Source of the DNA: a virus
DNA length: 64,000 nt
Direction: 5' to 3' (one strand)
Virus record (IMG/VR): IMGVR_UViG_3300044633_000899
Location: 23,306-87,305 of that record
The notes beneath the pieces were generated by a model that saw nothing but the letters and a program-made list of their open reading frames with translations, was not told the DNA's origin and searched no databases. The position numbers were made by a program, and so were the translations under genes. Position 1 is the stretch's first letter. Each line of letters opens with the position of its first letter. Below are positions 1 to 61,855 of this stretch, in pieces.

Positions 1-1
1 A

Positions 2-676
2 GAAGAAACGTCGTTGATTGAAAAGAAACGGATTGAAGAGGAGTTAATACAAGGTAACCTACGTTTTGTTATCACCGTCGCAAAACAATATCAAAATCAA
101 GGTCTTGAATTACCAGACTTAATTGCCGAAGGAAATCTTGGTTTAATGAAAGCAATTAAACATTTTGATTGGACAAAAGATCTTAGATTTATATCATATG
201 CTGTTTGGTGGGTTAAACAATCAATAATACAATCACTAAATGATAATTCAAGAACAATACGACTACCAGTTAATGTTGTCCAGGATTTACAACGAGCAAA
301 AAAAGAAGTTGAACAGAACGGTAAAAAAATAGACGATAAATTCTCTGCATTACCATCAATTATCAACTTGGATATGAACATCAATGAAGAAGGTGATACG
401 TTAGTAGACATCATCCAGAACCATAACGCTGAAGCACCAGACGCATGTTTTGATACCAAAGATATTTTAAAACAAAAATTAATATCGTTATTGGACGTAT
501 TGGATGATCGTGAAAAAGTTATTGTTGAAGATTACTTTGGTTTAAGTGGAACACCAAGAACTTTAGAAGACATTGGATCCGATTTTAACTTAACGAAAGA
601 ACGCGTTAGACAGGTAAAGGAAAAAAGTTTAAGAAAGTTAAGAAACCATTGTTCTGAATTATTTGATTATTTATAA
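2..676 (+). CDS. RNA polymerase sigma-70 family factor (ORF open to window start; 5' end probably upstream)
   Basis: Region 2-like LRFVITVAKQY...GLMKAIKHFDW...FISYAVWWVKQSI and region 4 HTH LEDIGSDFNLTKERVRQVKEKSLRKLR. Confidence 0.85.
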   Translation, partial: EETSLIEKKRIEEELIQGNLRFVITVAKQYQNQGLELPDLIAEGNLGLMKAIKHFDWTKDLRFISYAVWWVKQSIIQSLNDNSRTIRLPVNVVQDLQRAKKEVEQNGKKIDDKFSALPSIINLDMNINEEGDTLVDIIQNHNAEAPDACFDTKDILKQKLISLLDVLDDREKVIVEDYFGLSGTPRTLEDIGSDFNLTKERVRQVKEKSLRKLRNHCSELFDYL

Positions 677-768
677 ATCAATATTGATTTGCTAAAATAT
701 GTTAAAAAAAATTTTTGTATTGAAAAATAACATACCTTTGTCTTGTTAATCATTTAAAAATATGTCTT

Positions 769-999
769 ATGTTGAATTTATGTAAAAAGGTTGAAAAGGA
801 TTTCCAAATCCTTAAAAGTGGTGTTAAGAATGACACGCTTACAATCAACGAGATTGATACTATGAGTTTTGAATTACTTGGTATTTTAGGAACATTGACA
901 CAAAACAATGTTGTTAACATCAACGGAAAGGAAACTGTTGATAAATACAAAGATCGTGTTTGGATGATTATTGAGAACGTAGGTTTATTGGCCGACTAA
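769..999 (+). CDS. hypothetical small protein (76 aa)
   Basis: ORF between sigma gene and terminator; no motif recognised. Confidence 0.35.
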   Translation: MLNLCKKVEKDFQILKSGVKNDTLTINEIDTMSFELLGILGTLTQNNVVNINGKETVDKYKDRVWMIIENVGLLAD

Positions 1000-1032
1000 A
1001 CTTGATAATTAATTTCTTGAAAATATTTGATT

Positions 1033-1059
1033 CCCACCGTAAATGGTGGGTTTTTTTTT
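1033..1059 (+). terminator. intrinsic terminator
   Basis: hairpin cccaccgtaaatggtggg followed by T9. Confidence 0.7.
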
Positions 1060-1105
1060 GATCATATCATTTGACATTAAAAAACGTTTCACCTATATTT
1101 CATCT

Positions 1106-1942
1106 ATGAATGTATTAAGTTTATTTGATGGATTATCTTGTGGTCAAATTGCCCTTAATAGAGTTGGAATTAAATACAACAAGTATTTTGCGTCAGAGAT
1201 TGACGAATACGCGATTAAAGTAACCCAACAGAATTATCCAGGAACAACCCAAATTGGTGATGTAACACAAGTTAAAGGATCTGAGTTACCACAAATTGAT
1301 CTTATCATTGGTGGATCACCTTGTCAAGGATTTTCATTTGCGGGAAAAGGTTTAAATTTTGACGATCCAAGAAGTGCTTTATTCTTTGAATTTGTTAGAT
1401 TAGTAAAAGAATGTAATCCGAAATACTTTTTACTTGAAAATGTTAAAATGAAAAAAGAACACGAAGATGTTATTACTGAACATATGGGGATTAAACCTAT
1501 TAAGATTAATAGTAAATTAGTATCAGCACAAAGTAGGGAAAGACTATATTGGACTAATATTCCGAACATAAAACAACCGGAAGATAAAGGTATTTTAGTT
1601 AAAGATATTTTAGATTATACCACCGAACATAAACTTTTAACTGAGAAGGGTATTAAATCACAAATCCATTATGCCAAAAATTACAAGTCAATAGGTAAAT
1701 CACCAACATTAACTAGTGAATTGGCGCACGGTTGGGGTAAGAACATCACACCCAAATGTTATATTGAAATAAAAGCAATTACTGGTGAGGATAGGTTATT
1801 CTCACCATTAGAATGTGAACGATTACAAACAGTTCCAGATAATTACACTTCAGTTGTATCAAATACACAAAGATATAAAATGTTGGGGAATGGATGGACA
1901 GTAGATGTAATCGCACATATATTTAAAAATATTGAAATATGA
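1106..1942 (+). CDS. DNA (cytosine-5)-methyltransferase, tandem paralog 1
   Basis: Motif I LSLFDGLSCGQ, motif IV GGSPCQGFSFAG (PCQ), ENV, C-terminal QRYKMLGNGWTVDVI; start moved to ATG 1106 (MNVLSLFDG) because the track start overlaps the terminator. Confidence 0.9.
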   Translation: MNVLSLFDGLSCGQIALNRVGIKYNKYFASEIDEYAIKVTQQNYPGTTQIGDVTQVKGSELPQIDLIIGGSPCQGFSFAGKGLNFDDPRSALFFEFVRLVKECNPKYFLLENVKMKKEHEDVITEHMGIKPIKINSKLVSAQSRERLYWTNIPNIKQPEDKGILVKDILDYTTEHKLLTEKGIKSQIHYAKNYKSIGKSPTLTSELAHGWGKNITPKCYIEIKAITGEDRLFSPLECERLQTVPDNYTSVVSNTQRYKMLGNGWTVDVIAHIFKNIEI

Positions 1943-2736
1943 ATGTATTAAGTTTATTTGACGGCATGTCAGTAGGACAAATTGCTCTTAATAGAGTTGG
2001 AATTAAGTATGACAAATATTTTGCATCAGAGATTGATAAATTTGCAATACAAGTAACACAATGTAATTATCCAGAAACAACCCAAATTGGGGATGTAACA
2101 CAAGTGAAAGGTTCCGATCTGCCACAAATTGATCTTATTATTGGTGGATCACCTTGTCAAGGATTTTCATTTGCTGGTAAACAATTGAATTTTGATGATC
2201 CAAGAAGTGCTTTATTCTTTGAGTTTGTTAGGTTAATTGAAGAATGTAAACCAAAGTATTTTCTACTTGAAAATGTTGTGATGAAAAAAGAATATGAAGA
2301 TATTATCACACAACATATGGGTGTAAAACCAATTCTCATAAATAGTAATCTTGTTTCAGCACAAAATAGAAAACGACTTTATTGGACCAACATTCCAAAC
2401 ATAGAACAACCAGAAGATTTAAATATAACTATGTCTGACATACTTTTAAGTGGTCAACATATACTTGTCTCAAAACAAAAAAAGGAACATAAACCTGGTG
2501 GTGATAAAACGGCAACATTACTTGCTAGAGACTATAAAGGATTTGGTAATCAACAAATGAGTGGTGCTATGGACAATGGTAATATTAGAATGTTTACACC
2601 TGTAGAATATGAAAGATTACAAACTGTTCCAGATAATTACACCTCTGTCGTCTCAAACACCCAAAGATATAAAATGCTTGGAAATGGATGGACTGTTGAT
2701 GTAATTGCACATATATTTAAAAATATAGAAATATGA
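1939..2736 (+). CDS. DNA (cytosine-5)-methyltransferase, tandem paralog 2 (different TRD)
   Basis: Same N- and C-terminal catalytic motifs as paralog 1; ATGA overlap with upstream gene; central ~70 aa unrelated. Confidence 0.9.
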   Translation: MNVLSLFDGMSVGQIALNRVGIKYDKYFASEIDKFAIQVTQCNYPETTQIGDVTQVKGSDLPQIDLIIGGSPCQGFSFAGKQLNFDDPRSALFFEFVRLIEECKPKYFLLENVVMKKEYEDIITQHMGVKPILINSNLVSAQNRKRLYWTNIPNIEQPEDLNITMSDILLSGQHILVSKQKKEHKPGGDKTATLLARDYKGFGNQQMSGAMDNGNIRMFTPVEYERLQTVPDNYTSVVSNTQRYKMLGNGWTVDVIAHIFKNIEI

Positions 2737-3641
2737 ATGTATTAAGTTTATTTGATGGGTTATCTTGCGGTCAAATCGCATTGAACCGTGCTGATATTAA
2801 ATATGAAAATTATTTTGCTTCCGAAATTGACAAACACGCAATCAAGGTAACGCAACACAATTACCCAAACACAATACAACTTGGAAGTGTTACAGAAATT
2901 AAAGGGTCTGATTTACCACAAATTGATCTTATCATTGGTGGATCACCGTGTCAAGGATTTTCATTCGCTGGTAAACAATTAAACTTTGATGATCCACGAA
3001 GTAAATTATTTTTTGAGTTTGTTAGACTAAAAAATGAGTTAAATCCAAAATACTTTTTACTTGAAAACGTTGTGATGAAACAAGAGTTCCAGGATGTAAT
3101 AACCGAGTATCTGGGTGTCAAACCAATTAAGATTAATAGTAAATTGGTATCAGCACAAACCAGAGAAAGATTATATTGGACTAATATACCAAATTTAAAA
3201 CAACCAGAGGATTGTGGAATAACATTAAATGATATCTTGGAGGATATTGGTATAAATGGTGAATCTTTTGATAAAACAAAATTAAATAAAGCGACAATAT
3301 TAGGTAGAAGATTAGATTCTCGTGGTAAACGGATGGATTATGACAAAACAATCCCAATTACACAATGTTTGGAGGTTAGAGCGACAAATAGAGATAAAAG
3401 TAATTGTTTAACAACGGTTGCAAAAGATAATGTTTTAACAACACTACCAATTGGTCGTCACGTTGACGCATTTAAAAAGAATTTACCATTCAGATATTTT
3501 ACAATAAAAGAACATTGTAGACTACAAACCGTACCAGATACTTATTTTGATGGTGTTGCGAGTGAAAATCAAATTAGAAAAATGTTAGGAAATGGGTGGA
3601 CAGTTGATGTTATTTCACATATTTTTAAAAATATTTTGTGA
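2733..3641 (+). CDS. DNA (cytosine-5)-methyltransferase, tandem paralog 3 (different TRD)
   Basis: MNVLSLFDGLSCGQ, GGSPCQGFSFAG, ENV, MLGNGWTVDVI; longer unrelated central region. Confidence 0.9.
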   Translation: MNVLSLFDGLSCGQIALNRADIKYENYFASEIDKHAIKVTQHNYPNTIQLGSVTEIKGSDLPQIDLIIGGSPCQGFSFAGKQLNFDDPRSKLFFEFVRLKNELNPKYFLLENVVMKQEFQDVITEYLGVKPIKINSKLVSAQTRERLYWTNIPNLKQPEDCGITLNDILEDIGINGESFDKTKLNKATILGRRLDSRGKRMDYDKTIPITQCLEVRATNRDKSNCLTTVAKDNVLTTLPIGRHVDAFKKNLPFRYFTIKEHCRLQTVPDTYFDGVASENQIRKMLGNGWTVDVISHIFKNIL

Positions 3642-3669
3642 AAGTTGTTATTTATTCAAAATAAAGTGT

Positions 3670-3677
3670 TACATTTG
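3670..3677 (+). promoter_or_regulatory. Bacteroidetes-type -7 promoter element TAcaTTTG
   Basis: tacatttg directly upstream of an ORF-free GC-enriched region; same motif precedes many CDS starts in the window. Confidence 0.45.
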
Positions 3678-3684
3678 TACTGTT

Positions 3685-3990
3685 GGATTAATCAACAACT
3701 TGTTTTTGGACTCCCAAGTATAGAAAAGGAGTTTATCACTTAACTCACGGGTTAGGTGGGGTGATTGAAAAAGATGGGAGATCCCCAAAATACACAGAAA
3801 CGTGGTAATTACCAGCCATCCCATATACGGCTAGATGGGCGTTAAGTCTTTACGAGATAAGGACAGAAAGGACGGGTTAAAAATCACAAATGAGCTCAAA
3901 GTGATGGTTTAAGTAGAAGTAGTTTGGGAAGAAACGAGCCCAGGCTGATAGGAAGATGGAAGACGATTAAGATACTAATATCCTATCCTA
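3685..3990 (+). ncRNA. candidate structured non-coding RNA (unclassified)
   Basis: About 300 nt with no ORF >60 aa on the plus strand; GC content clearly above the flanks; several short stem-loops (tgggg..cccca, cccat..atggg, atcac..gtgat); -7 motif upstream. Confidence 0.35.
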
Positions 3991-3991
3991 C

Positions 3992-4414
3992 TTAAGCAAC
4001 CCAAATTACAACTTGATTATCACCAACTCTAAAAGGATTTGAAGGTGATTCCCTAAATACAGTTGAAATTTCTAATCTCCAGTAAGTACCCCCAATATGT
4101 ATAGGGTTTATCGCTAACGCTAATTCCCGTTCAACTGATTTAACGACAAATGGTTTTTTGTTAAAAATTTCTCTATTAATAATTTTTTCGGCGATATCAC
4201 CCTTAACTAGTGAAATAAGTTCTTTAATTTCTCTATTTTCAATAGGGTTCTGATTATAATCTGTTCCATCAAGTTCTGGTCTTGTAGATCTATCAAAAGC
4301 ATGACTCCTCCTGTCAACTTCAAAATTAAATGAAACCTCAAGATTTGAAACAACTTGTGCTATTTTCTTTTCAAGTATTAAATGTTTTCTAATTGACTCT
4401 CTAAGTAGTGACAT
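3992..4414 (-). CDS. hypothetical protein (140 aa)
   Basis: Minus-strand ORF converging on the ncRNA candidate; no motif recognised. Confidence 0.5.
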   Translation of the reverse strand: MSLLRESIRKHLILEKKIAQVVSNLEVSFNFEVDRRSHAFDRSTRPELDGTDYNQNPIENREIKELISLVKGDIAEKIINREIFNKKPFVVKSVERELALAINPIHIGGTYWRLEISTVFRESPSNPFRVGDNQVVIWVA

Positions 4415-4462
4415 ATCTATTAAACTTTATTATAAGTATTTATTTGTTATATTTTAGTCATT

Positions 4463-5548
4463 ATGAAAGAAAAATTTTTACCTTGGTTTATGTTAGTGTG
4501 TGCGTTAGGTCTATCTGGTACCGCAGCATACTATAGTGTTATTGGATTATCCGTTGTGTTTATTAGTGTTGCAACACCAGTTATTATTATGGGATCATTC
4601 CTTGAGATCTCAAAAATCGCAATTGCGACCTATTTACACGACAAATGGAATGAAACATACGGAATGTTAAAGTTCTATATGACAACTGCCTTAATTACAT
4701 TATCAATAATTACATCAATTGGTATTTACGGACTTTTGAGTACTGGATTCCAGGGAAATATTGCCAAAATGGAAATCAATGAAAAACGAATTAAAAATAT
4801 TGAGGTTAAGAAGAATCGGTTTATAGAAATAAAAGATGAATTAATTGATGAGAAAACAATATTAAATGGTGATATAACAAAATTGAGAGATGGACTATCA
4901 AATAATACAACGACACAAACAGTTGACAGAAAAACAGGACAATTAATAACCAAGGCCAACGAGGGTAATAGGAAATCTTTTGAAACTCAATTACAACAAG
5001 CACAAGTCAGACGAGACGATATTTCAAAAAAGATTGACAATTGTAACGACAGTATTACCAATTTGGATGTTCAAATCTTAGATATGGAATCAGCAGAAAT
5101 TGAAGGTAGTGAACTTGGGGCTATAAAATACATTGGAGAAATATTAGATTGGGATATAAAAAAAGTTGCCAACTTATTTATATTGATATTAATTTTTGTT
5201 TTTGATCCGTTAGCGATAACATTAGTGATTGCAACAAATCAATTGTTTAAATCAAACAAGAAAAAGAATCCGACAACACAAAAAATTGAGACGGATAATA
5301 CCAAAATAGAAACAGAAAAAATTTGGGAAAAGGCAAACCAATTACGAGAAGAAGGTAAATTAGAACCACCAACCACAGAAGACATTATTAATGAACCAAC
5401 GGCTTTGGCCAATTCACAATACCGAAATGAATATAATATAGAACGGGAACCATTAAATCTGAACCAAGAGATAAATTGGGTTCAGACAAGTGAAGAAAAT
5501 AATGGTGAGGTTAATCAAAACATAAAAAGATTGATATATAAGAAATAA
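4463..5548 (+). CDS. membrane protein with three N-terminal TM helices and a long coiled-coil
   Basis: Hydrophobic N-terminus (FMLVCALGLSGTAAYYSVIGLSVVFISVATPVIIMGSF...), K/E-rich heptad-like middle, second hydrophobic stretch (LFILILIFVFDPLAITLVIA). Confidence 0.6.
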   Translation: MKEKFLPWFMLVCALGLSGTAAYYSVIGLSVVFISVATPVIIMGSFLEISKIAIATYLHDKWNETYGMLKFYMTTALITLSIITSIGIYGLLSTGFQGNIAKMEINEKRIKNIEVKKNRFIEIKDELIDEKTILNGDITKLRDGLSNNTTTQTVDRKTGQLITKANEGNRKSFETQLQQAQVRRDDISKKIDNCNDSITNLDVQILDMESAEIEGSELGAIKYIGEILDWDIKKVANLFILILIFVFDPLAITLVIATNQLFKSNKKKNPTTQKIETDNTKIETEKIWEKANQLREEGKLEPPTTEDIINEPTALANSQYRNEYNIEREPLNLNQEINWVQTSEENNGEVNQNIKRLIYKK

Positions 5549-6144
5549 TGACAAAAATTATTAAGTATGGAAAATTTGTTGGTCTTGGTATTAATGAAAA
5601 TAAACGACAAATTGTTTTAATTCATTCTGGTAGACCAAGTGATGAATATTTAACATCACTTAAATATCGTCTGAATGGTAATTACGAAAAAATACCTAAT
5701 TATTTTATAGATAAAGATGGTAAGATTTTACAATTATTACCAAAGGAGGAAACCTCAAAAAACTTTAATATTAGTGTTGTTGATAAGAACGCAATTGTTA
5801 TTTGTTTGGAAAATTTGGGTTGGTTAGAAAAAGAACCATTAAAAAATGGTTACATTAACTGGATTGGTAATATTTATAAAGGTAAGGTGTACGAAAAAAA
5901 ATGGAGAGACTACATTTTTTGGGATCCTTACACTGAAGAACAAACTAATTCAACGTTATTCTTGTGTAAGAAACTAATCGCACAAATGAATATTGACAAT
6001 AAGTTTGTTGGACATAACACTAAAATTAACGGTGCTGAAAAATTTTTTGGAGTACTAACAAGAAGTAATTTCTTTATGGAAACAACAGATTTAAATCCAT
6101 CGTTTAATTTTGAATATTTTTTAAAAAAAATTGAAGATGAATAG
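5548..6144 (+). CDS. putative N-acetylmuramoyl-L-alanine amidase (Amidase_2/PGRP-like)
   Basis: Blocks resembling T7-lysozyme-type amidases: QIVLIHSGR, YFIDKDGKIL, AIVICLENLGW, YTEEQTNSTLFLCKKLIAQ. Confidence 0.45.
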   Translation: MTKIIKYGKFVGLGINENKRQIVLIHSGRPSDEYLTSLKYRLNGNYEKIPNYFIDKDGKILQLLPKEETSKNFNISVVDKNAIVICLENLGWLEKEPLKNGYINWIGNIYKGKVYEKKWRDYIFWDPYTEEQTNSTLFLCKKLIAQMNIDNKFVGHNTKINGAEKFFGVLTRSNFFMETTDLNPSFNFEYFLKKIEDE

Positions 6145-6718
6145 ATATGACGAAATTAAATCACTTTTAAGTGCATCAAGAAAAGTACTTAAAAACACAT
6201 TAAATGAAAGTGAAATTTATAAAATTAAATCAACCCACGGATTACTAACGGAACAAGAGGATGTTGAAAAGGAATATGAAACTTTTGATGGTGAAGAAGA
6301 AGATGGTAATGAGGAAGAAACTGTAAATAAATCAGATAAAAAACGAGCATACAGAATTTCTGGTGGTGTATTTGTTATCCACAGTAAAGAACCTAAAAAT
6401 TTACAACTTACAACTGAAGACAAACGAGCATTCCAAGAAACAATGGATGAGTTTACCGCCGACGTATCTGAATTGGTTGATTTTGACAAGTTAAATTTAT
6501 ATGACAATAATGTTGAGTGGTCTGGTAAAATAAATGAATTGGATGTTGAGTTCTTTTTATCAATTGGTGAAAAGAATGGTATTTATATAAATGGGACTAT
6601 GACCAAGGTTGACGATGAGTATATGGAGTTTTTGACAAATTTAAAACAATATTACGATAAATTTAAAACTAAATGGTCACAAGTAATCTCATCAAGAAAA
6701 AAAACACCAATAGAATGA
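6131..6718 (+). CDS. hypothetical acidic protein
   Basis: ORF overlaps the upstream stop; E/D-rich. Confidence 0.5.
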   Translation: MKMNRYDEIKSLLSASRKVLKNTLNESEIYKIKSTHGLLTEQEDVEKEYETFDGEEEDGNEEETVNKSDKKRAYRISGGVFVIHSKEPKNLQLTTEDKRAFQETMDEFTADVSELVDFDKLNLYDNNVEWSGKINELDVEFFLSIGEKNGIYINGTMTKVDDEYMEFLTNLKQYYDKFKTKWSQVISSRKKTPIE

Positions 6719-7068
6719 AAGAATTTGTAATTAATAATTTTCAGTTTATAATTCAATCAATAGGTACAATATTGTTAATTGTATTATTAATTAGATCTTG
6801 TAGTCCAATTGAGGATAGATCAGAGTTATTGCAGTATAAATTAGACCAATTAGATACTAAAATTGAAGACTTAAATAAACAACAAAAAATGTTAAACGAT
6901 TCAATAATCGGTTATAAAAAGGATATATTAAAAATTGATTCAACAATATCAAAAATAAAAACCGATAGAAAAACAATTAACAATTATTATGAAGTACAGA
7001 GGGATATAATTCTAGGTTATACCGCTAAACAAATTGACTCCGCGTTAAGAATTAAATATAAATATTAA
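6715..7068 (+). CDS. membrane-anchored coiled-coil protein
   Basis: MKEFVINNFQFIIQSIGTILLIVLLI TM segment followed by a coiled-coil; start moved to ATG 6715. Confidence 0.5.
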   Translation: MKEFVINNFQFIIQSIGTILLIVLLIRSCSPIEDRSELLQYKLDQLDTKIEDLNKQQKMLNDSIIGYKKDILKIDSTISKIKTDRKTINNYYEVQRDIILGYTAKQIDSALRIKYKY

Positions 7069-7069
7069 A

Positions 7070-7480
7070 ATGAAAAACACACTTATTCTTTTTTTTATAT
7101 TATTAACCAATATTTCTTTTGGTCAAATAATTGAATCTGACACAACAACACTATTAATACCAGTTAATGTTGGAAAATCTATTTTGGTTGACTTGAATGA
7201 TTTAGAGCGATTGAAAAAACAAGAAGTGACGTATAAAAATGAAATACAACAACTAGAAAACAAAGTATTTAAAAACGAAAAGATAATAACTAGTTTAGAG
7301 GATAAGGATAAAAAAAACAATGAGATAATTGAATTAAAGGATTCAAAGTATAAATTAGTTGACGAGGAAAACAAACAATTACGTGATGATATTAAAAAAA
7401 TCAAAACTAAGAATGTAATTATTGAAATTGTTGGTGGATCAATTATAGCCGCATTAACTTATATTATAACCTTTAAATGA
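7070..7480 (+). CDS. exported coiled-coil protein (signal peptide, C-terminal TM)
   Basis: N-terminus MKNTLILFFILLTNISFGQ, K/E coiled-coil, C-terminal IVGGSIIAALTYIITF. Confidence 0.5.
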   Translation: MKNTLILFFILLTNISFGQIIESDTTTLLIPVNVGKSILVDLNDLERLKKQEVTYKNEIQQLENKVFKNEKIITSLEDKDKKNNEIIELKDSKYKLVDEENKQLRDDIKKIKTKNVIIEIVGGSIIAALTYIITFK

Positions 7481-8574
7481 TGGAAGACACTATTAAACAA
7501 GATATAACACAAATGGTTAACAGTTTAACGGCAGGAAATAATGACGCCAGAGTTGCTGCAAACAAATCCTTGAATGAAGATGGTAATGAAAGAAATCCTG
7601 AAGACTATTTAGTTGAACCCAACGATATGGTTATTATTTTAAATCTAGTTAAAAATAAAAAACTATCTGCGAATAAAATAAAACAAAAAATTAGAGAGTA
7701 TCTTAAAGATCCTAACACACTAAAAAGTTTCTTAAAATCAATAATTGACAGTAGAGGTAAAAAAGAAACAAAAGAAATGACTGGTACATCTTCAGCTGGG
7801 GGATATTCAGAACCGTTATTCACGAAAATGGAAACAAAAGAAGCGACAGGTTCATCCTCATCTGGTTCATATGAAACACCAAAGATATGGGCTAAAAGTA
7901 CGAATAAAAAAGACTGGAGAGGTAAATCAAAACCACAAATACCTGGTGGTAAGTTTGTTCAGGTTAAGAAAAAATGTAAAAAGTTTCCATATTGTAATCA
8001 AGGTGATATTAACGCCCTTAATATTTTTGAAGATAAAATGTTGATAAATGCGGTAAATAAGGTTTCGCAAAAATTTGGTATAAATAAAGATATAATCAAA
8101 GAAATAATTGAAGTTGAGATTAGTAATACAACAACCGAAAATCAATACAAACTAATTAAAGAAAATATTTCTTTAAAAGAAAAATTAAGGAACCTAATCA
8201 AAAAGATTGGTTTTGAATCTGTAACAAAGATTGTTGGATCTTTGGATAAAACTTTTGAAATCTTTGATATTAAAGAACCGATGGATTTCTTAAACTTGTT
8301 TAACGATCTGGATGTTGTTCAGAGTGAAGACCTTGACTCTTGGACGTTATATCGTTATAAAAAAGGTCATAATTTTATTGTTTACGATAGAGAAAGTGAT
8401 GAGATTTATATTAATTATTATGAAATTTGGTCGGTTTTGGAAGACAAATTTGGTCTTAAATACTCTGAAATACAGGAACTTACAAAGATATGGTTGGATG
8501 AGGTCTACAATTTAAGGGGTGTCACATCATTGATAATTGGTGTTGATGACAGTTGTATGAGGTCTACAATTTAA
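7477..8574 (+). CDS. repeat-associated family protein A (about 220-aa unique N-terminal part + conserved ~130-aa module)
   Basis: C-terminal 140 aa about 75% identical to ORFs 26575-26997, 53750-54148 and 55672-56121; contains internal TENQYKLIKENISLKEKL; the last codons are encoded by the 36-nt repeat. Confidence 0.7.
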   Translation: MMEDTIKQDITQMVNSLTAGNNDARVAANKSLNEDGNERNPEDYLVEPNDMVIILNLVKNKKLSANKIKQKIREYLKDPNTLKSFLKSIIDSRGKKETKEMTGTSSAGGYSEPLFTKMETKEATGSSSSGSYETPKIWAKSTNKKDWRGKSKPQIPGGKFVQVKKKCKKFPYCNQGDINALNIFEDKMLINAVNKVSQKFGINKDIIKEIIEVEISNTTTENQYKLIKENISLKEKLRNLIKKIGFESVTKIVGSLDKTFEIFDIKEPMDFLNLFNDLDVVQSEDLDSWTLYRYKKGHNFIVYDRESDEIYINYYEIWSVLEDKFGLKYSEIQELTKIWLDEVYNLRGVTSLIIGVDDSCMRSTI

Positions 8575-10472: not shown

Positions 10473-10649
10473 ATGGAAACTTTAGAAAAAATAAAAGCGT
10501 TAGTTGAGACACTTTCTGACGAATCAACAAAATTTTATGAAAAAAATAATAAATCAGCAGGAACTAGAGCAAGAACTGCAGCACAAGAATTAAGAGAACT
10601 ATTAAAAACGTTTAGAGGTGAAATTTTAGAGGCTAGAAAGAATGGTTAA
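10473..10649 (+). CDS. small basic protein (58 aa, below the track cutoff)
   Basis: ATG 10473 to TAA 10649: METLEKIKALVETLSDESTKFYEKNNKSAGTRARTAAQELRELLKTFRGEILEARKNG. Confidence 0.35.
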   Translation: METLEKIKALVETLSDESTKFYEKNNKSAGTRARTAAQELRELLKTFRGEILEARKNG

Positions 10650-12437: not shown

Positions 12438-13373
12438 ATGAATACTGACAATTATTACACTATTTTAGGCGTCTCAGAAGACGCAACACAAGATGATATA
12501 AAAAAAGCGTATAGAAAGTTAGCGAAAGAAAATCATCCAGATAAAGGTGGTGATGAGGAAATTTTTAAAAACATATCAATTGCTTACGACGCTATTGGTA
12601 ATGAGGAAAGTCGTAAGAAATACGATTTTGAACGAAAAAACCCTTTCAGTGGAATTAAAGGTCAATATGGTGAAGCGTTCAGATCTGCCTTTAGAAATAT
12701 GCACAGAGGTCACGAATCACAAGAACATAGAGTCCACACAAAAACAATCACAATTGATATTACAGTGTTAGATTCTTTCCTATCAAAAGAAAAACAATTT
12801 GAGTTTAATCGGAAAATTAAATGTGAACCTTGTGGTGGTAAAGGTGGTGAAAGACAAACTTGTCAAATATGTTCAGGACAAGGGCAGGTCATACAACAGA
12901 TGGGTAGTGGTATGTTTATACAAATTGTTTCTATGATGTGTAACAATTGCTCTGGACGAGGTTATACGTTGGTAAATAAATGTAACGAATGTTTAGGAAA
13001 TGGTACAAAAAATGAAGCAAAAAAAGTTGAGGTAAAAATACCACACGGTATTGATAATGGGCAATTTTTAAGAATGAAAGGTGTTGGTGATTTTAATGAA
13101 GGTTTGTATGGTGATTTAATAATTAAGGTTAATTTACAAAATGAAAACGACTTTGATAAGTACGACAATAATTTAGTATATAACAAATACTTTAATATTA
13201 ATGATTTTAATGAAGAATCTTTTGAAGTACCACACCCTGACGGAACAATGAAAGTCAATTTTCCAAAAAATATTGACACATCCAAACCATTAAGAGTAAA
13301 AGGTAAGGGATTTAAATATAATGGTGTTGGTGATTTATTTATAAATCAATATTTAAAGTATGAAAAACTTTAA
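12438..13373 (+). CDS. DnaJ-like co-chaperone (J domain + CxxCxGxG zinc-finger region)
   Basis: DYYTILGVSEDATQDDIKKAYRKLAKENHPDKGG (HPD motif); CEPCGGKG, CQICSGQG, CNNCSGRG, CNECLGNG repeats. Confidence 0.85.
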   Translation: MNTDNYYTILGVSEDATQDDIKKAYRKLAKENHPDKGGDEEIFKNISIAYDAIGNEESRKKYDFERKNPFSGIKGQYGEAFRSAFRNMHRGHESQEHRVHTKTITIDITVLDSFLSKEKQFEFNRKIKCEPCGGKGGERQTCQICSGQGQVIQQMGSGMFIQIVSMMCNNCSGRGYTLVNKCNECLGNGTKNEAKKVEVKIPHGIDNGQFLRMKGVGDFNEGLYGDLIIKVNLQNENDFDKYDNNLVYNKYFNINDFNEESFEVPHPDGTMKVNFPKNIDTSKPLRVKGKGFKYNGVGDLFINQYLKYEKL

Positions 13374-13634: not shown

Positions 13635-15575
13635 ATGGAATTAGTAAATATATTATCAAAAGTAGTTAAAGAAAATTTAACGACTAAAAAAATATTATTA
13701 GAATACCCTGAATCTACGGTTAAAAAATTATTAGATAAGTTTACAAAAGAAACTGATGAAACTGAAGATGTTATACGTAAAACAATCTCTGATTTTGAAC
13801 GATTTAAAAGTTCGTTAAGTAATGAAGATAAAGATATTTTTAAACATTCATATGAAAAAATAAAAAGTTTGATTAAAGATAAATCAACACAACAAAAAAC
13901 TAAAAAAGATTTAGATGGTTTAGTCCAGGATTATATCGCAAAAAATAAAGGTGCTGATTTACAATTAACAAAGAACAACATTAAAAAATTCTTTGAGATT
14001 AAAACAAATTTACCTCAAGCGAGAGAATTTAAATCAGACGTTACAAATATTAATCCCTCTGAGTTAAATAGTTTGGTTCAACGGTACTTTACAAAGTTCA
14101 ATAACCAAGGTGTCAATGAACTTATAGTAGCAATAGCACAAAAATTTCACGATGAAAATCCAGATGAAGATGTTATGACTGCAATCTTACCTAGGGTTAA
14201 ACGTTTTGTAAAACACTACGATTTAGTTCCACTAAATGCTAAGTTGAGTAAATTAATGAATTTTATTGAATTTGAACATATTGTTGATGGATACACACCA
14301 ATGGAAGAGAGTGAGTATACAGTACCAGAAGTTGACACTAGTGATGTTGATATTGCATATGAAGATGATGATATTTTAATTTTTGCACCAGACCAAAAAC
14401 ATAAATGTATTAACATTAGAAAGAAATTCGCACCAGATAGAAGATGGTGTACTTCTTGGGAGGGATCCTCAAATTATTATTACAATTATCGTTTAAATCA
14501 AAATTTAACATTATATTATGTTATTCAGAAAAATTTACCAGAGACTGATTTAAATTACGCAACCGTTGTCCTTGTTGATAAATATGGTAGTATGAGATTA
14601 GCCGATGGATCAAACTCTGGACGATACGCTGGTGGTAATGAATTACCTTGGAGTGAAATTGTTTCTAAAGTTCCCGCACTTAAAGGTAAGGAACAATACT
14701 TAGAAGCAAAACCATACGATGGTGAAGATGAGGCAAAATTAAAAAAATATAAATCTTACAATTTAAATACAACAGATCCTATTTCAGAATTAGGTAGTTT
14801 AGAAGAAGTTGAATTATGGTTAGAATTAAGAAGTCCCGATCTTAAATCAACACCAAGAGGTGATGAGATTTTTGGGAATTTTCCGGAAGAATTACAAAAA
14901 AAATACATTGGTTTAGGGAACGAATTATCCGCTGGGATGGTTAGAGCATTAACACCTAGTGCAATGGGTTACTATATTTCAAAGAAACGTGAAAAATTAT
15001 TACAAAAGACACTTAAAGATTTAAATGAAAATGATATGGAAATCATATTAAGTAAAGAAATGAGACCATATTATAAAAGTTTAAAGGAAAAATTTGCTAA
15101 CGAACTTAATAATCAATTTGGTGATATTATACAAATTAAATACCCTTCAGATACTAGCGCAAAATATATTAGAATGTTTGGTATGAATGAGTTATTAGAT
15201 AGTATACCAGACACAACAATACTTTTTGAGGTTGATAACACATCAAACGACAAAGTAATCTTTGACATTCCAGATTCAATTGGTAAATTAACTAATTTAC
15301 AAACATTAGTTTTTAATAATTGTATTAATAAATTACCAGAAACAGTAGGTAATCTTACTAATTTACAATTTTTAACTTTAACTAATAATGAGGAATTGAC
15401 GACATTCCCAAATAGTGTTGTTGATTTAAGATGTTTATTGTTTATCTCTGTTGAAAATTCACCAATTGATATTGAAACATTACCAGAAGAGTTTAAAAGA
15501 TATGTTGACACAAGTGCTGACACATTTTGGCCAGTTAACTATCCTGATGAGATGAAAGGCGACTGTTTACTTTAA
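13635..15575 (+). CDS. large protein with central WCT-motif domain and C-terminal leucine-rich repeats
   Basis: LRR units (IGKLTNLQTLVFNNCINKLPETVGNLTNLQFLTLTNN); central segment DDDILIFAPDQ...DRRWCTSWEG shared with ORFs 24948 and 49065(-). Confidence 0.6.
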   Translation: MELVNILSKVVKENLTTKKILLEYPESTVKKLLDKFTKETDETEDVIRKTISDFERFKSSLSNEDKDIFKHSYEKIKSLIKDKSTQQKTKKDLDGLVQDYIAKNKGADLQLTKNNIKKFFEIKTNLPQAREFKSDVTNINPSELNSLVQRYFTKFNNQGVNELIVAIAQKFHDENPDEDVMTAILPRVKRFVKHYDLVPLNAKLSKLMNFIEFEHIVDGYTPMEESEYTVPEVDTSDVDIAYEDDDILIFAPDQKHKCINIRKKFAPDRRWCTSWEGSSNYYYNYRLNQNLTLYYVIQKNLPETDLNYATVVLVDKYGSMRLADGSNSGRYAGGNELPWSEIVSKVPALKGKEQYLEAKPYDGEDEAKLKKYKSYNLNTTDPISELGSLEEVELWLELRSPDLKSTPRGDEIFGNFPEELQKKYIGLGNELSAGMVRALTPSAMGYYISKKREKLLQKTLKDLNENDMEIILSKEMRPYYKSLKEKFANELNNQFGDIIQIKYPSDTSAKYIRMFGMNELLDSIPDTTILFEVDNTSNDKVIFDIPDSIGKLTNLQTLVFNNCINKLPETVGNLTNLQFLTLTNNEELTTFPNSVVDLRCLLFISVENSPIDIETLPEEFKRYVDTSADTFWPVNYPDEMKGDCLL

Positions 15576-23209: not shown

Positions 23210-23329
23210 TTTTGTAGATATTTATGAAATACAAAAAAACACACACCCACCCTTTCTGTTGGTAAAACATAAAATCTCAAAAAATTAAAATATTTTTTTG
23301 AGATTTTTGTTTTTATAATAATTTTTTTA

Positions 23330-25916: not shown

Positions 25917-26570
25917 ATGAACTTTAAAAAAATATTAACAACAGGAAAAGTATTCATAACATCGGATACACATTACGGACACAAAAATATTGTACGAGGT
26001 GTAACAAACTGGAGAACCCAGGATGGTGAAATACCTATTGATTCAGTTAGGGATTTTGGAACAATTGATGAAATGAATGAAAGATTGGTTTATGGTATTA
26101 ACAATATGGTTGGTCAAGACGACACACTAATAATGTTGGGTGATGTTTCATTTGGGGGATTTGATAATATTGGAATTTTTCTTGATAGATTGGTATGTCA
26201 AAACATTCATCTTATATTAGGAAATCACGATATGCACATCCAGAACAATCGTGGAAACATACAGAGTAGATTTTTAAGTGTTAATCACTATTTGGAAGTG
26301 AATATTGAAGGAAAAAATTTTGTGTTATGTCATTATCCATTACAAAGTTGGCATGGACTAAATAAAGGCGTTATCCAACTTCACGGGCATGTACACCTTA
26401 GTCCAGACAAAAAATTTGGTAAAGGTAAAAAAATGGACGTTGGTATGGACGGTAATAACTTAAACCCATATAGTATTGGTGAAATCATTAAGATTATGGA
26501 TAAAAGACCAATATTTTCAGATATGGATAATGATCATCATCTGGATGATTTAGTTGGTATTATTGGTTAA
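25917..26570 (+). CDS. calcineurin-like metallophosphoesterase
   Basis: SDTHYGH, GDVSFGG, LGNHD, CHYPL, GHVH motif series. Confidence 0.8.
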   Translation: MNFKKILTTGKVFITSDTHYGHKNIVRGVTNWRTQDGEIPIDSVRDFGTIDEMNERLVYGINNMVGQDDTLIMLGDVSFGGFDNIGIFLDRLVCQNIHLILGNHDMHIQNNRGNIQSRFLSVNHYLEVNIEGKNFVLCHYPLQSWHGLNKGVIQLHGHVHLSPDKKFGKGKKMDVGMDGNNLNPYSIGEIIKIMDKRPIFSDMDNDHHLDDLVGIIG

Positions 26571-26574
26571 TAAT

Positions 26575-26997
26575 ATGGAAGACAAAATAAAAGAAAAATT
26601 AAAGGATTTAATCAAAAATGTTGGATTTAAATCAACGATAAGAGTTGTCGGATCCTTGGATAAAACATTTGAGATCTTTGATATTAAAGAACCAATGGAT
26701 TTCTTAAATTTATTTAATGATTTGGAATCGGTTCAGAGTGAAGAACGTGAAGATTGGACGTTATATCGTTATAAAAAAGGACATAATTTTATAATTTACA
26801 ATAGAAAAAATGATTATGTTCATATCAATTATGATGAAATTTGGTCAGTTTTAGAAGACAATTTTGGACTTAACTACTCTGAAACACAAGAACTTACACA
26901 GAGATGGTTGGATGAGGTCTACAATTTAAGGGGAGTCACACCATATATTCAACTTTTTGAAAATCAGCAATATAGTTGGATGAGGTCTACAATTTAA
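26575..26997 (+). CDS. repeat-associated family protein B
   Basis: About 75% identical to the modules in 7477, 53750 and 55672; ends ...WLDEVYNLRGVTP + spacer-encoded YIQLFENQQYS + WMRSTI (second repeat copy read in a different frame). Confidence 0.7.
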   Translation: MEDKIKEKLKDLIKNVGFKSTIRVVGSLDKTFEIFDIKEPMDFLNLFNDLESVQSEEREDWTLYRYKKGHNFIIYNRKNDYVHINYDEIWSVLEDNFGLNYSETQELTQRWLDEVYNLRGVTPYIQLFENQQYSWMRSTI

Positions 26998-31534: not shown

Positions 31535-32482
31535 ATGATTGGACTATTAATTTTTATTTTAGGATTAGCAATTGCTGGAGTTATTGCTTACACAACACGA
31601 GAACAAATGTTTGAAATTGTTGAATCACGTTATGGTAATTCAGAAGAATTCAAACCATCCTGGGTGGTTAAACCATTATCAGTTTTATTATTAACAATGT
31701 TGATTGGTATGGTACAACCATTCGCGATTGAAAAAATTGATGCTGGAAACAAAGGGTTAAAAGTTAACTTAGTAGGTAACCAAAGAGGAGTATCAAGTTA
31801 TCAATACAAAACTGGTTGGGTAGTTTATAACACCTGGACAGAACAGATTTTAGAGTTTCCAATTTATCAACAACACATTGAATACGATGATCAAATTGTT
31901 ATATTAAAAGGTGGATTCTCAGCAACAATTAAACCAACATTTAATTATTCATTAAAAGAAAATGCTATTGGAGATATGTTTGTGAATTTAAGGAAACCAA
32001 TCACAGATATTGAACAGTTTTGGCTTAAAAATGCAATCGTTGGTGCCGTTAATGATGAGGCCAATAAATGGGAAGTTGATAGTATATTTAATCACAGACA
32101 AGCGTTTGAAGCAGCAATTGTAGTTGAATGTAACGCAAGACTTTCTAAGTGGTTCAATGTATCACAATTAAGAACAAACATTACACCACCAGAGGCGTTA
32201 CAAGAATCAATTATTGCCAAAACAAAATCAATCCAACAAGCACAAGCGTCAGAACAACAAGCGTTAGCCGCAATTGCTGATGGTAAAAGAAAAATCGCGG
32301 TAGCAAGGGCTGATAGTGCTGAAACAGTAATCAACGCATCCGCAAAGGCAAAAGCAATGGATCTTACACAACAAAAATTAACATCACTTTATGTTGAATA
32401 TAAGAAAGTTGAAAAATGGGACGGAAAATTACCAACAACAGTTGCTGGTGGATCTGGGACATTTCTAAATATAAAACAATAA
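31535..32482 (+). CDS. SPFH/band-7 (stomatin/prohibitin-like) membrane protein
   Basis: N-terminal TM, SPFH core, C-terminal AQASEQQALAAIADGKRKIAVARADSAE coiled region typical of HflK/C and stomatin. Confidence 0.7.
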   Translation: MIGLLIFILGLAIAGVIAYTTREQMFEIVESRYGNSEEFKPSWVVKPLSVLLLTMLIGMVQPFAIEKIDAGNKGLKVNLVGNQRGVSSYQYKTGWVVYNTWTEQILEFPIYQQHIEYDDQIVILKGGFSATIKPTFNYSLKENAIGDMFVNLRKPITDIEQFWLKNAIVGAVNDEANKWEVDSIFNHRQAFEAAIVVECNARLSKWFNVSQLRTNITPPEALQESIIAKTKSIQQAQASEQQALAAIADGKRKIAVARADSAETVINASAKAKAMDLTQQKLTSLYVEYKKVEKWDGKLPTTVAGGSGTFLNIKQ

Positions 32483-40262: not shown

Positions 40263-41339
40263 ATGAACAACAATTTAGATAAACAATACACAGATTTATT
40301 ACAGGATATTTTAGAGAATGGTACAAAAAAAGAAACTAGAAATGGTGGAACACTTTCAGTATTCGGAAGACAAATACGTCACAATATGAAAGATGGGTTT
40401 CCAGCCATTACTACCAAAAAAATGGTATTTAAGACAATGGTAACCGAATTGTTATGGTTCTTACGTGGTAGTTCAGATATTAGGTTTTTATGGGAAAACA
40501 ATTGTAAAATCTGGGATGGTGATTGGGAAAAAAATTACAAAACTACTTGTTCAGAACCATATACAATAGAAGAAGTTAAACAAAAAGTAAAAGATGGTAA
40601 CCACCATTTTAACGATTCAATGTTTGATATGGGATTAATTTACGGTAAGCAGTGGAGAAGTTGGAGAGGAAAAAATGGTATGATTGGCGAGAAAGATGAA
40701 GATGGGGTAAGAGTAATTAATTGGGAGAAAATAGATCAAATTGCAAACCTAATCAACGACCTTAAAACAAACCCAGATTCACGTAGGTTACTTGTGTCAG
40801 CGTGGAATCCCGCAGATTTACCACATCAAGTCCTTCCACCTTGTCATTATGGATTTCAAGTTTATACAAGAGAGTTGAGTGAGAAAGAAAGGTATAATCT
40901 TTTAAAAAATTACAAAGGGTTATTATGTTATGATGGTATAGGAAATGTTATGGAATATTATGATTCTATTAATATTCCTAAACGAGCAATCTCATTAATG
41001 TATAATTGCAGAAGCCAGGACGTACCATTAGGAACCCCATTTAATTTAGCATCTTACGGATTGTTATTAGAAATCATTGCAAAAACCGTTAATATGGTTC
41101 CTGACGAATTGATTACAAATATGGGTGATTGTCATATCTATCTAAATCAAATTGATGGTGTTAAAGAACAATTAACAAGAGAACCTTATCCACTACCAAC
41201 CCTAAAACATATGAAAACTGATGAGTTTTATAAATCATTAGGTGAGGATTTATCATTGTTATCACATTTAACAGTTGATGATTTTGTTTTGGAAAACTAT
41301 AAGTCACACCCAAAAATTTATTTTCCGCTTTCAAATTAA
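40263..41339 (+). CDS. thyA: thymidylate synthase (ThyA family, dUMP-type active site; long form with insertions)
   Basis: LLVSAWNPADL, PPCHYGFQVY (catalytic Cys), CRSQDVPLGTPFNLASYGLL (Asn of the dUMP-specific D..N pair), GDCHIYLNQ. Confidence 0.85.
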   Translation: MNNNLDKQYTDLLQDILENGTKKETRNGGTLSVFGRQIRHNMKDGFPAITTKKMVFKTMVTELLWFLRGSSDIRFLWENNCKIWDGDWEKNYKTTCSEPYTIEEVKQKVKDGNHHFNDSMFDMGLIYGKQWRSWRGKNGMIGEKDEDGVRVINWEKIDQIANLINDLKTNPDSRRLLVSAWNPADLPHQVLPPCHYGFQVYTRELSEKERYNLLKNYKGLLCYDGIGNVMEYYDSINIPKRAISLMYNCRSQDVPLGTPFNLASYGLLLEIIAKTVNMVPDELITNMGDCHIYLNQIDGVKEQLTREPYPLPTLKHMKTDEFYKSLGEDLSLLSHLTVDDFVLENYKSHPKIYFPLSN

Positions 41340-42634: not shown

Positions 42635-43435
42635 ATGATTGAAACCCCCTTTAATTACACAGGATCCAAGTATAAATTACTGGATCAGATATTACCCCAC
42701 TTTAATTATAATAAATCAAATTTTGTTGATGTGTTTTGTGGTGGTGGATCCGTATATACCAATGTTTTGGGCAAATACGAGAAAATTATAATCAACGATA
42801 TTATTTCCGACTTGATTGGAATTCATTGTGGTTTAATGGTTGACGATAATATTATTGAGTTAACAAAGGGATTATGTCCAGGTAAAGAAAACCCAGAAGG
42901 TTATTCAATTTTAAGGACTGATTATAATGAAATGCCGACACCAGAAAAACTATGGGCATTAATGTTGAGTTGTACTAATAATATGATGAGGTTTAATCAA
43001 AAATTTAAGTTTAATCAGACGTACGGGAATAGAGGTTGGAATCAAAATACAGATAAAAAAGTTAATAATTTCATTAACCACATTAGGGAATATAAGAACA
43101 AGATTGAATATTCATCAACACATTTTGAAAATTTGAACTTTAATGAAAATCATATGTTATATGTTGATCCACCATATTCAAATACGGAAGCAGGATATAA
43201 CGCTTTTTGGAAAAAAGATGATGATCTTAAACTGTATGACTGGTTAGTTGATAATGATAAAAATGGCTTATCATTTGTTGTGTCAGGAACATTAATCCAC
43301 GATGGTAAATCTTGTGTGTTACTTGACAAGTTAATTTCAGATGGTTATAATTTGGTTGAGTTAGATTTTGATTACAATAAAGTTTCAAGAAAGGGTGACA
43401 AAATAACAAAAGAAATATTAATTAAAAATTATTGA
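42635..43435 (+). CDS. Dam-like DNA N6-adenine methyltransferase
   Basis: NYTGSKYKLLDQILP (KxxLL), FVDVFCGGGSV (AdoMet binding), DPPY catalytic motif. Confidence 0.8.
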   Translation: MIETPFNYTGSKYKLLDQILPHFNYNKSNFVDVFCGGGSVYTNVLGKYEKIIINDIISDLIGIHCGLMVDDNIIELTKGLCPGKENPEGYSILRTDYNEMPTPEKLWALMLSCTNNMMRFNQKFKFNQTYGNRGWNQNTDKKVNNFINHIREYKNKIEYSSTHFENLNFNENHMLYVDPPYSNTEAGYNAFWKKDDDLKLYDWLVDNDKNGLSFVVSGTLIHDGKSCVLLDKLISDGYNLVELDFDYNKVSRKGDKITKEILIKNY

Positions 43436-55668: not shown

Positions 55669-55671
55669 GTG

Positions 55672-60429: not shown

Positions 60430-60531
60430 CGAAACTTAAAAAAATAACTATTATATTCGTTTTTAATAAGTCAAATCTTAATCAAAGGTAATTTATTTAT
60501 TTAATTTTTTGTTTTATTCAAAAACATTACA

Positions 60532-60539
60532 TATCTTTG
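60532..60539 (+). promoter_or_regulatory. -7 promoter element TAtcTTTG
   Basis: tatctttg 4 nt before ATG 60544. Confidence 0.4.
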
Positions 60540-60543
60540 CAAT

Positions 60544-61555: not shown

Positions 61556-61558
61556 ATT

Positions 61559-61852: not shown

Positions 61853-61855
61853 ATT

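Follow-up and report, generated by a model that had tools for sequence, protein, structure and literature searches.

Multispecific C5-cytosine DNA methyltransferases (C5-MTases) were reportedly described from Bacillus phages SPR, phi3T, rho11s, SPbeta, and H2 by Trautner, Noyer-Weidner, Guenthert, and colleagues. These phage-encoded, nuclease-less enzymes carry several target-recognition domains (TRDs) in a row in one polypeptide, combining one catalytic framework with interchangeable TRDs for several specificities; PMC8936443 and PMC12707154 list work on them among their references. More generally, orphan methyltransferases (MTases) protect phages against restriction, as in the lactococcal 936 phages (PMC4190342), and no other identifiable genes are as frequent in the flexible islands of phages from cryoconite metagenomes (PMC7468147). 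In both of these groups, they are accessory genes at a variable site of syntenic genomes, with an anti-restriction role that is presumed or shown. Here, we describe an array of three C5-MTase genes (M1, M2, and M3) in a 64,000-nucleotide stretch of virus DNA (the window; positions 23,306 to 87,305 of IMG/VR record IMGVR_UViG_3300044633_000899), which belongs to a large (at least 187 kb), uncultivated phage with a G+C content of 29%. Whereas the Bacillus phage enzymes string their TRDs together in one protein, the array has one TRD per complete, apparently translationally coupled gene. And whereas the 936 and cryoconite cases are mostly single N6-adenine MTases, up to four or five C5 paralogs stand head to tail in the arrays described here. 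We consider it likely that M1, M2, and M3 are three functional, monospecific orphan enzymes, expressed from a translationally coupled operon, that would shield the phage from restriction. Phage anti-restriction methylation is a known strategy, and the array is a clean example of it in an unusually tidy arrangement, not a new principle. In a limited literature search, we came across no account of paralogous phage C5-MTases in overlapping arrays; phages with multiple MTases are commonplace.

All three proteins belong to the C-5 cytosine DNA methylase family. Scores against PF00145 were 174.1, 169.8, and 149.0 bits for M1, M2, and M3, respectively (cutoff, 22 bits), and M1 and M3 covered profile positions 1-322/324. 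The closest solved structures were M.HhaI (E = 3.7e-27), the catalytic domains of DNMT3A/3B (E ~6e-27), and M.HaeIII (E = 1.9e-22). The motifs follow the canonical order. Aligned with M.HhaI, motif I, LFDG(L/M)S(C/V)G, corresponds to LFAGLGG; motif IV, GGSPCQGFS with the catalytic cysteine, to PCQ; motif VI, LLENV, to ENV; motif VIII, Q(S/N/T)R(E/K)R (QSRER in M1), to QKRER; and motif X, KMLGNGWTVDVI, to KQFGNSVVINVL. Motif IX, which the M.HhaI alignment also places, reads RxF(S/T)PxExERLQTVPD in the three copies. Residues P72, C73, E111, N112, V113, R144, and R146 are invariant across M1 to M3, and every catalytic motif is invariant or conservatively substituted. Motifs I to VIII fall within the first 160 amino acids (aa) and motifs IX and X within the last 49. 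One variable target-recognition region, flanked by conserved blocks, separates motif VIII from motif IX. M.HhaI and M.HaeIII share this fold family, motif order, and single variable region. Unlike them, the window proteins are phage-borne and in tandem, have no adjacent endonuclease that we could find, and are shorter (265 to 302 aa versus ~327 to 330 aa). With one 56- to 93-aa variable region per protein and no internal TRD repeats, none of the three is of the multispecific SPR/phi3T type. Likeness to DNMT3A/3B (query residues 2-275 aligned to DNMT3A 10-279 at E = 6e-27, an LFDG-type motif I, and a short variable region) is at the family level only, as the array lacks PWWP and ADD domains and sits in a prokaryotic virus; automatic naming at JGI nonetheless labels many orthologs "DNMT3A." Taken with the purifying selection described below, the intact motifs suggest that M1 to M3 are functional C5-MTases.

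The three genes share a scaffold, and they have diverged on it for a long time. Their N-terminal 160 aa (the N-domain) align without gaps at 79 to 86% identity (75 to 83% at the DNA level). Over the C-terminal 49 aa, identity is 92% for M1 versus M2 and 65 to 67% for M3 versus either of the others. In pairwise comparisons of the N-domain, the proportion of synonymous differences (pS) was 0.53 to 0.66, synonymous divergence (dS) was 1.0 to 1.6, and nonsynonymous divergence (dN) was 0.08 to 0.16. Because synonymous sites are near saturation and dN/dS is ~0.1, the copies are old and under purifying selection rather than recent duplicates. A first-pass annotation, made from the sequence alone, had described their catalytic ends as near-identical. 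The shared scaffold bears this out, but the degree of identity does not, and the C-terminal sequence attributed to all three genes is absent from M3, whose C-terminus reads QIRKMLGNGWTVDVIS and not QRYKMLGNGWTVDVIA. The same annotation had placed mutually unrelated TRDs in the centers of the proteins, which agrees with our comparisons. No BLASTP match was found among the 69-, 56-, and 93-aa variable regions of M1, M2, and M3, and hhalign profile-profile probabilities between TRD types were below 1% after the common 10-residue lead (xGIxxxDIL) had been trimmed.

We compared the genes with their orthologs in related phage loci (numbered L001 and upward). Full-length orthologs of M1 were found in more than 120 clusters at 77 to 100% identity. 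Orthologs of M2 (L088:6836-7651 and L001:8001-8816) were 89 to 92% identical in the N-domain and 89 to 91% in the TRD, and those of M3 were 78 to 79% identical in the TRD in L088, L176, L177, and L178 and 65% in L041:8147-9064. Identity matrices showed that, within a TRD type, N-domains are 72 to 94% identical and TRDs 64 to 93%, with TRD identity following N-domain identity. Between types, TRDs differ in length and are ~20% identical, which is noise, despite N-domain identities of 79 to 86%; the within-type trend would predict ~70%. In a neighbor-joining (NJ) tree of 32 N-domains (500 bootstrap replicates), the M2-type was supported by 436 replicates, the M3-type (window and L088) by 497, and a further type, T4, by all 500. 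The window trio never grouped together (0/500), nor did its three orthologs in L088 (0/500). The M1-type N-domains were paraphyletic, with the M2-type nested among them. Since N-domains cluster by TRD type and not by genome, recent duplication, concerted evolution, and current TRD shuffling within the array are ruled out. Judged by this tree, the TRD types are old, stable paralogous lineages. Their most likely origin would be ancient TRD replacement, which is favored because TRDs of different types are so much less alike than the trend predicts and because the M2-type is nested within the M1-type. The modular TRD swapping proposed in the first-pass annotation best explains the origin of the types if it is taken as an ancient event; as a recent or ongoing process, it is not supported.

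This bears directly on the possibility that the array is actively shuffling, with TRD modules swapped between near-identical frames or frames homogenized by gene conversion, so that new specificities appear on short time scales. The conserved gene ends do form direct repeats (three 300-nucleotide [nt] copies at 80 to 85% identity and three 57-nt copies at 86 to 88%), the initial 23 nt are identical in all three genes, and the paraphyly of the M1-type would also suit such exchange. In addition, a 54-nt block around PCQ (nt 184 to 237 of the genes; positions 1289-1342, 2122-2175, and 2916-2969) differs at 2 to 3 positions among the window copies, which are nearly identical there at synonymous sites, compared with 7 to 12 in orthologs and in the L088 paralogs. 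This block may be a short gene-conversion tract, a weak hint of intragenomic exchange, but the run test on it was weak (P = 0.015 to 0.13, uncorrected, with the block picked post hoc). Gene conversion among the copies was rejected, this post hoc signal being all that speaks for it. The near-saturated synonymous divergence, the absence of the window trio from all replicates, and the retention of each TRD type with its own N-domain clade across phages make active shuffling quite improbable. Nor does the locus resemble recombinase-driven systems, such as shufflons or phase-variable hsdS: the copies lie on a single strand and are all direct repeats, and a Pfam search of the array neighborhood found no recombinase family. 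What remains is a set of old paralogs, each with its own TRD.

The TRDs themselves are under selection. Between orthologs, dN/dS was 0.05 to 0.13 for the M1 TRD (64 to 93% identical), 0.10 to 0.16 for M2, and 0.07 to 0.19 for M3, with synonymous divergence at or near saturation for M1 and M3 (pS = 0.64 to 0.75) and at a pS of 0.30 to 0.32 for M2. Such strong purifying selection argues that all three enzymes are functional and have stable specificities. On our preferred reading, one S-adenosylmethionine-binding and catalytic scaffold would serve three enzymes, each reading a different DNA motif through its own TRD. We did not recover those motifs by homology. Searches with the TRDs alone returned no match in the PDB for M1, M2, or M3, even at E = 10, and the M1 TRD had no match in GenBank phages or in GTDB genomes (one genome per species). 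The only match of the M2 TRD was the TRD region of the methylases of Pelagibacter phages HTVC134P/HTVC309P (~50% identity). The M3 TRD was ~47 to 49% identical over 63 to 73 aa to C5-MTase TRDs of phi92-like Escherichia phages and Vibrio phages and 63 to 76% identical to four contigs of metagenome-assembled genomes (MAGs). The BASEL paper states no specificity. Of the two MAG loci inspected, the unrelated L173 contains an MT-A70 methylase and a terminase in the vicinity, the terminase being the only one seen. An attempt to read the M3 specificity from an adjacent named endonuclease failed, as the inspected MAG loci contained no nuclease family. Because no TRD resembles a characterized enzyme, the TRDs are candidates for new methylation specificities that could be useful as tools.

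The same lack of assignable specificities leaves room for fewer than three protective ones. Two of the enzymes could each modify a different strand of a shared asymmetric site, in the manner of the paired strand-specific C5-MTases of type IIS systems such as HgaI; their motifs could be nested or overlapping; or one copy could be inactive. The very small size of M2 also speaks for this view, which we regard as unlikely. The types occur independently of one another (M1-type alone in L086, M1 and M3 without M2 in L176 to L178, and M2 without M3 in L001), and purifying selection is strong on all three genes, TRDs included. If the three specificities do differ, as we favor, the array would be a natural side-by-side test of the way in which one constant C5-MTase scaffold accommodates small, mutually unrelated TRDs, which at 56 to 93 aa are among the shortest known.

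The array occupies a variable island in an otherwise conserved region. Phages with this syntenic backbone are common in metagenomes, and sigma factor homologs at 63 to 85% identity anchor the loci. The backbone runs from a ~790-aa protein through a variable slot, a DUF6576 protein, the sigma gene, and the island to a membrane protein and an amidase; lysozymes, the amidase, DnaJ, and the sigma factor give the window and its source contig a phage-type context. In ~20 relatives, which were found through the sigma gene alone and are therefore unbiased with respect to MTases, the interval between sigma and amidase contains no C5-MTase. Relatives hold 0, 1, 2, or 4 such genes, and the carriers show at least eight combinations of at least five TRD types. 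In the closest subclade (sigma 83 to 85% identical), the islands read, in order, M1, M2, M3 in the window; M1, M2, M3, T4 in L088, which keeps the window order and adds a fourth gene; M1, M3 in L176/L177 and L178; T4, M1 in L085 and L180/L181; M1, an ICEA-family gene, T5 in L089; a DUF723 protein, M1, T5 in L179; a DUF723 protein, M1 in L086/L087; M2 and a truncated second gene in L001; and T5, another type, T4 in L045. Relatives thus differ in which whole genes they have gained or lost and in how these are ordered. With no partner nuclease family detected in the window ORFs scanned or the 8 kb upstream, and with an accessory distribution among relatives, the genes behave as orphan phage MTases do. 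The exact M2 protein was also present on a 187-kb metagenome contig (JBFDRA010000416.1; GCA_043538635.1) and on a 48-kb JGI contig. GenBank phages include no near relative at the DNA level, and at the protein level they gave only family-level matches (≤60% identity over most of the protein).

In keeping with this variation, the old paralogs would now act as cassettes, each a whole gene, that enter, leave, and change places within the island beside the sigma gene, and as a hypothesis, the conserved 5' and 3' gene ends, being direct repeats, might mediate that turnover. A more far-reaching version is possible, although we hold it only tentatively and on balance doubt it. In this version, the sigma-proximal island is a combinatorial methylase-cassette site where large phages that are otherwise syntenic assort at least five TRD-defined types as whole genes, now and then with nuclease-like genes, NlaIII/IceA-like ones included; the 23-nt starts, 57-nt ends, and ATGA junctions serve as handles for homologous recombination; and the population can thereby match local host restriction repertoires, alongside a lineage-specific purging of other 4-bp palindromes. 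Such a site would be the gene-array counterpart of the multispecific Bacillus phage enzymes.

Arrays of this kind are not confined to the backbone. At least two MTases of the subfamily were present in 9 of the 80 best IMG/VR loci, and head-to-tail arrays also occur in phage contigs without detected sigma, amidase, or membrane genes: five genes in L041 (3828-9064), three in L044 (8001-10503), and three in L024 (1-2606), each MTase with a different TRD. Start and stop codons overlap in L041 and L044, and most such arrays outside the backbone show overlaps of the ATGA type. In three relatives (L086:5090-6004, L087:3830-4744, and L179:9090-10004), the gene immediately 5' of the M1-type gene overlaps its start and encodes 304 aa that match DUF723 and a treble-clef zinc finger; the product may be a partner that binds DNA or resembles a nuclease. 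The second variable slot, between the ~790-aa SbcC-like protein and the DUF6576 gene, contains a 177-aa ORF in this phage (L082:6788-7321) and N6_N4 MTases, a TaqI-family gene, or other ORFs in relatives (L086:2280-3644, L088:3922-4620, L085:2976-3746, and L180:6074-7742).

No restriction-enzyme family was detected by Pfam and PADLOC among the array neighbors or by Pfam in most window ORFs and the 8 kb upstream, which agrees with the earlier statement that no cognate endonuclease is nearby. The Pfam scan comprised the concatenated translations of most ORFs of ≥55 aa up to ~60.4 kb of the window, with ORFs 13635-15575, 40263-41339, 42635-43435, 54232-55668, and 62655-63770 scanned individually; outside the scan lay the paralogs of a C-terminal domain, the ORFs at 59782-62380, and a few other ORFs of small size. 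The convergent 140-aa ORF that bounds the island on the right was considered as a hidden endonuclease partner and ruled out, since it is present in L103 and L121, which have no MTase at the site. It also has homologs in L089 and L045 and is a backbone gene, given its occurrence in relatives without any MTase. The 361-aa and Amidase_2 proteins beyond it are likewise kept in syntenic relatives.

Calling the genes orphans fits the window ORFs that were scanned, with the caveat that relatives carry nuclease genes in or near the island. In L089, an ICEA/NlaIII-family gene (6892-7497; E = 3e-41) lies between two of these C5-MTases, its 3' end overlapping the start of the downstream one, and in L088 a TaqI-family gene (3922-4620; E = 5e-29) with no adenine MTase beside it occupies the neighboring variable slot. 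The matching sites are nearly gone from those loci (observed/expected, CATG 3/28 in L089 and TCGA 0/12 in L088), which suggests that, in these relatives, phage nucleases may be made safe by site avoidance. Chloroviruses carry many DNA MTases, some of them paired with site-specific endonucleases. Methylomes of giant viruses are treated in PMC7253447. Like chloroviruses, the present lineage is rich in MTases and includes NlaIII/IceA-like and TaqI-like genes; chloroviruses, however, are viruses of eukaryotic algae, and their genes are dispersed and not set in an overlapping paralog array. By analogy, M1 to M3 might mainly shield the phage from its own nucleases during degradation of host DNA, the array being the modification half of phage-borne restriction-modification modules. 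The nuclease genes of L089 and L088 and their purged sites speak for this idea. Against it, the scan above found no nuclease family, tblastn with both nucleases found no copy in the window, most carriers have the array without a recognizable nuclease, and TCGA and CATG are protected here by avoidance and not by methylation. We therefore think self-protection improbable and continue to favor defense against host enzymes: phage DNA methylated at three motifs during replication would resist cleavage by host type II enzymes of those specificities, with near-total avoidance of TCGA, AGCT, and CATG complementing methylation.

That avoidance is pronounced. Relative to a second-order Markov model for 4-bp palindromes, the window has 2 of 93 expected TCGA, 4 of 44.5 AGCT, and 24 of 163 CATG sites, while the counts of GCGC, GGCC, CCGG, and GATC equal the expected values or fall moderately short of them. 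Within the array there are no TCGA, no AGCT, and one CATG; it obeys the genome's purge, which points to long residence in this lineage. Which palindromes are almost completely purged differs from relative to relative (L085 to L122 and L176 to L181); examples are GATC 0/61, TCGA 0/24, and CCGG 0/12 in L095, CATG 0/37 in L104, and ACGT 1/21 in L179; another example is ACGT at 1/14. GATC is only mildly depleted in the window (148 observed/218 expected; O/E = 0.68), compared with none of 30 to 60 expected in many relatives. This suggests that the Dam-like enzyme that the first-pass annotation had listed as a fourth MTase, and which we confirmed at 42635-43435, is active and that GATC avoidance has been relaxed. 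Two further interpretations of composition were rejected. Depletion of TCGA, AGCT, and CATG does not reflect deamination of 5-methylcytosine (5mC) at M1 to M3 targets: L088, with three orthologs, has AGCT at expectation, and TCGA and CATG are depleted in relatives without the array. Underrepresentation of GpC is not an MTase footprint, because it is lineage-wide regardless of the island (rho = 0.42 to 0.68; window, 0.50). With 0 to 4 cassettes on the same backbone, phage-specific purging, and, in some relatives, nuclease genes whose sites are missing from the genome that carries them, the lineage is a good system for studying the trade-off between methylation and avoidance.

At G+C-rich sites, carriers of the island differ from noncarriers in pooled O/E for GCGC (0.86 versus 0.10; P = 2e-6) and CCGG (1.00 versus 0.45; P = 1e-7), a contrast that is confounded by phylogeny and host because the carriers form one subclade (sigma 83 to 85% identical). 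It fits a replacement of avoidance by methylation, as expected of enzymes that make 5mC, and the unpurged GATC is also consistent with such replacement. The confounding is one of several points that weigh against three active, distinct, and protective enzymes. CCGG is also unpurged in L045 and L001, both without an M1-type gene, and across 13 carrier loci we found no clean association between motif depletion and TRD type, ACGT purging failing to follow the M2-type. At 265 aa, of which the variable region makes up 56, M2 is a very small C5-MTase. No TRD resembles a characterized enzyme, and activity and specificity are predictions. The contig is at least 187 kb long and the nuclease search covered ~72 kb of it, restriction endonucleases often escape detection by sequence, and L089 and L088 have genes of nuclease families within the island or next to it. 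Finally, the promoter described below is a match to a sigma-70 consensus that may not be the host's.

A last alternative takes 5mC as an intermediate for hypermodification, for example, by TET-type oxidation and glycosylation, and not as the final mark. C5-MTs of metavirome phages do feed phage TET dioxygenases (PMC8256090). Those enzymes, with GpC(C/T) specificity, are like M1 to M3, by description only, in being small, metagenomic, and divided into clades that differ chiefly in the TRD. Unlike them, the array has no TET or glycosyltransferase neighbors found by Pfam; the scan of the window detected no TET/JBP or DNA glycosyltransferase family. There is also no sign of wholesale cytosine replacement, and the thymidylate synthase homolog has an Asn that we take to be of the deoxyuridine monophosphate (dUMP) type. 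Hypermodification is accordingly very unlikely, and we retain 5mC as the presumed final mark. The homolog in question (40263-41339; 358 aa; PF00303, E = 1e-86) extends ~90 residues beyond the 266-position profile. Its PFNLASY motif contains the presumably dUMP-type Asn, and the product is probably a true ThyA and not an enzyme that modifies deoxycytidine monophosphate.

The structure of the array points to joint expression. Its three ORFs, on one strand, have exactly the coordinates first given (Table 1), and the M1/M2 and M2/M3 junctions both read ATATGAATG, in which the stop codon and the following start share ATGA. The array had been placed directly downstream of a sigma factor gene. That adjacency holds in relatives; in this phage, a 76-aa ORF, a terminator-like hairpin, and a promoter-like site that matches the consensus at 11 of 12 positions intervene, and the array consequently looks like a separate transcription unit. 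The sigma gene, complete at 266 aa on the source contig (L082:7938-8738), is a backbone gene at the left edge of the island. By tblastn, the 76-aa ORF had matches in the window, L081, and L082 and nowhere else, so that it is confined to this phage. The total number of promoter-like sites equals the shuffle expectation, so that only the quality and position of the site at 1071-1099 are informative. Its -10 element ends 6 nt ahead of the M1 ATG, and inspection of the sequence upstream of position 1106 found no Shine-Dalgarno-like sequence; from this spacing, M1 may be leaderless. A longer M1 ORF opens at ATG 1043. That codon is unlikely to be the real start because it lies inside the hairpin and because every paralog and ortholog begins with MN(V/I)L(S/G)LFDG. 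Expression would probably be early; here it would start at the consensus promoter of the array, whereas in relatives the array would be expressed along with the sigma gene.

Table 1. Features of the methyltransferase array, its flanks, and the Dam-like gene (window positions)
Feature	Position	Strand	Remarks
Sigma-70-family gene, 3' part	14..676	+	Cut by window start; Sigma70_r2 E = 1e-16, Sigma70_r4 E = 2.4e-13
76-aa ORF between sigma gene and array	769..999	+	No Pfam or PADLOC match
Intrinsic-terminator-like hairpin, 7 pairs (5 G-C), then T9	1033..1050	+	CCCACCGTAAATGGTGGGTTTTTTTTT; closes sigma/76-aa ORF unit
Sigma-70-type promoter-like site, TTGACA-17-TATATT	1071..1099	+	11/12 match; top scorer in 1-6500
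M1, C5-cytosine DNA methyltransferase, 278 aa	1106..1942	+	M1-type TRD (T2); PF00145 E = 6.7e-51
M1 variable region (TRD), aa 161-229, 69 aa	1586..1792	+	
M2, C5-cytosine DNA methyltransferase, 265 aa	1939..2736	+	M2-type TRD (T3); PF00145 E = 1.3e-49; ATGA overlap with M1 stop
M2 variable region (TRD), aa 161-216, 56 aa	2419..2586	+	
M3, C5-cytosine DNA methyltransferase, 302 aa	2733..3641	+	M3-type TRD; PF00145 E = 2.9e-43; ATGA overlap with M2 stop
M3 variable region (TRD), aa 161-253, 93 aa	3213..3491	+	
140-aa convergent ORF, right island edge	3992..4414	-	No Pfam or PADLOC match
361-aa membrane/coiled-coil protein and 198-aa Amidase_2 protein, right flank	4463..6144	+	Amidase_2 E = 4.8e-10
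D12-class (Dam-like) N6-adenine DNA methyltransferase, 266 aa	42635..43435	+	PF02086 E = 7.5e-30

Beyond the array, the window encodes several cell-like accessory proteins, including an Hc1 histone-like protein (10473-10649), a full DnaJ (12438-13373), a 646-aa leucine-rich-repeat protein (13635-15575), an SPFH/Band-7 protein (31535-32482), a ClpP protease (44828-45562), and an RNA ligase (62655-63770). A domain of ~110 aa (…VGSLDKTFEIFDIK(E/K)PMDFLNL(F/Y)NDL…YNLRGVT…) recurs in four ORFs (7477-8574, 26554-26997, 53750-54148, and 55669-56121), and three ORFs (27074, 53254, and 55669) share the N-terminal motif MKIIITExQY. Together, these ORFs are a dispersed paralog family.

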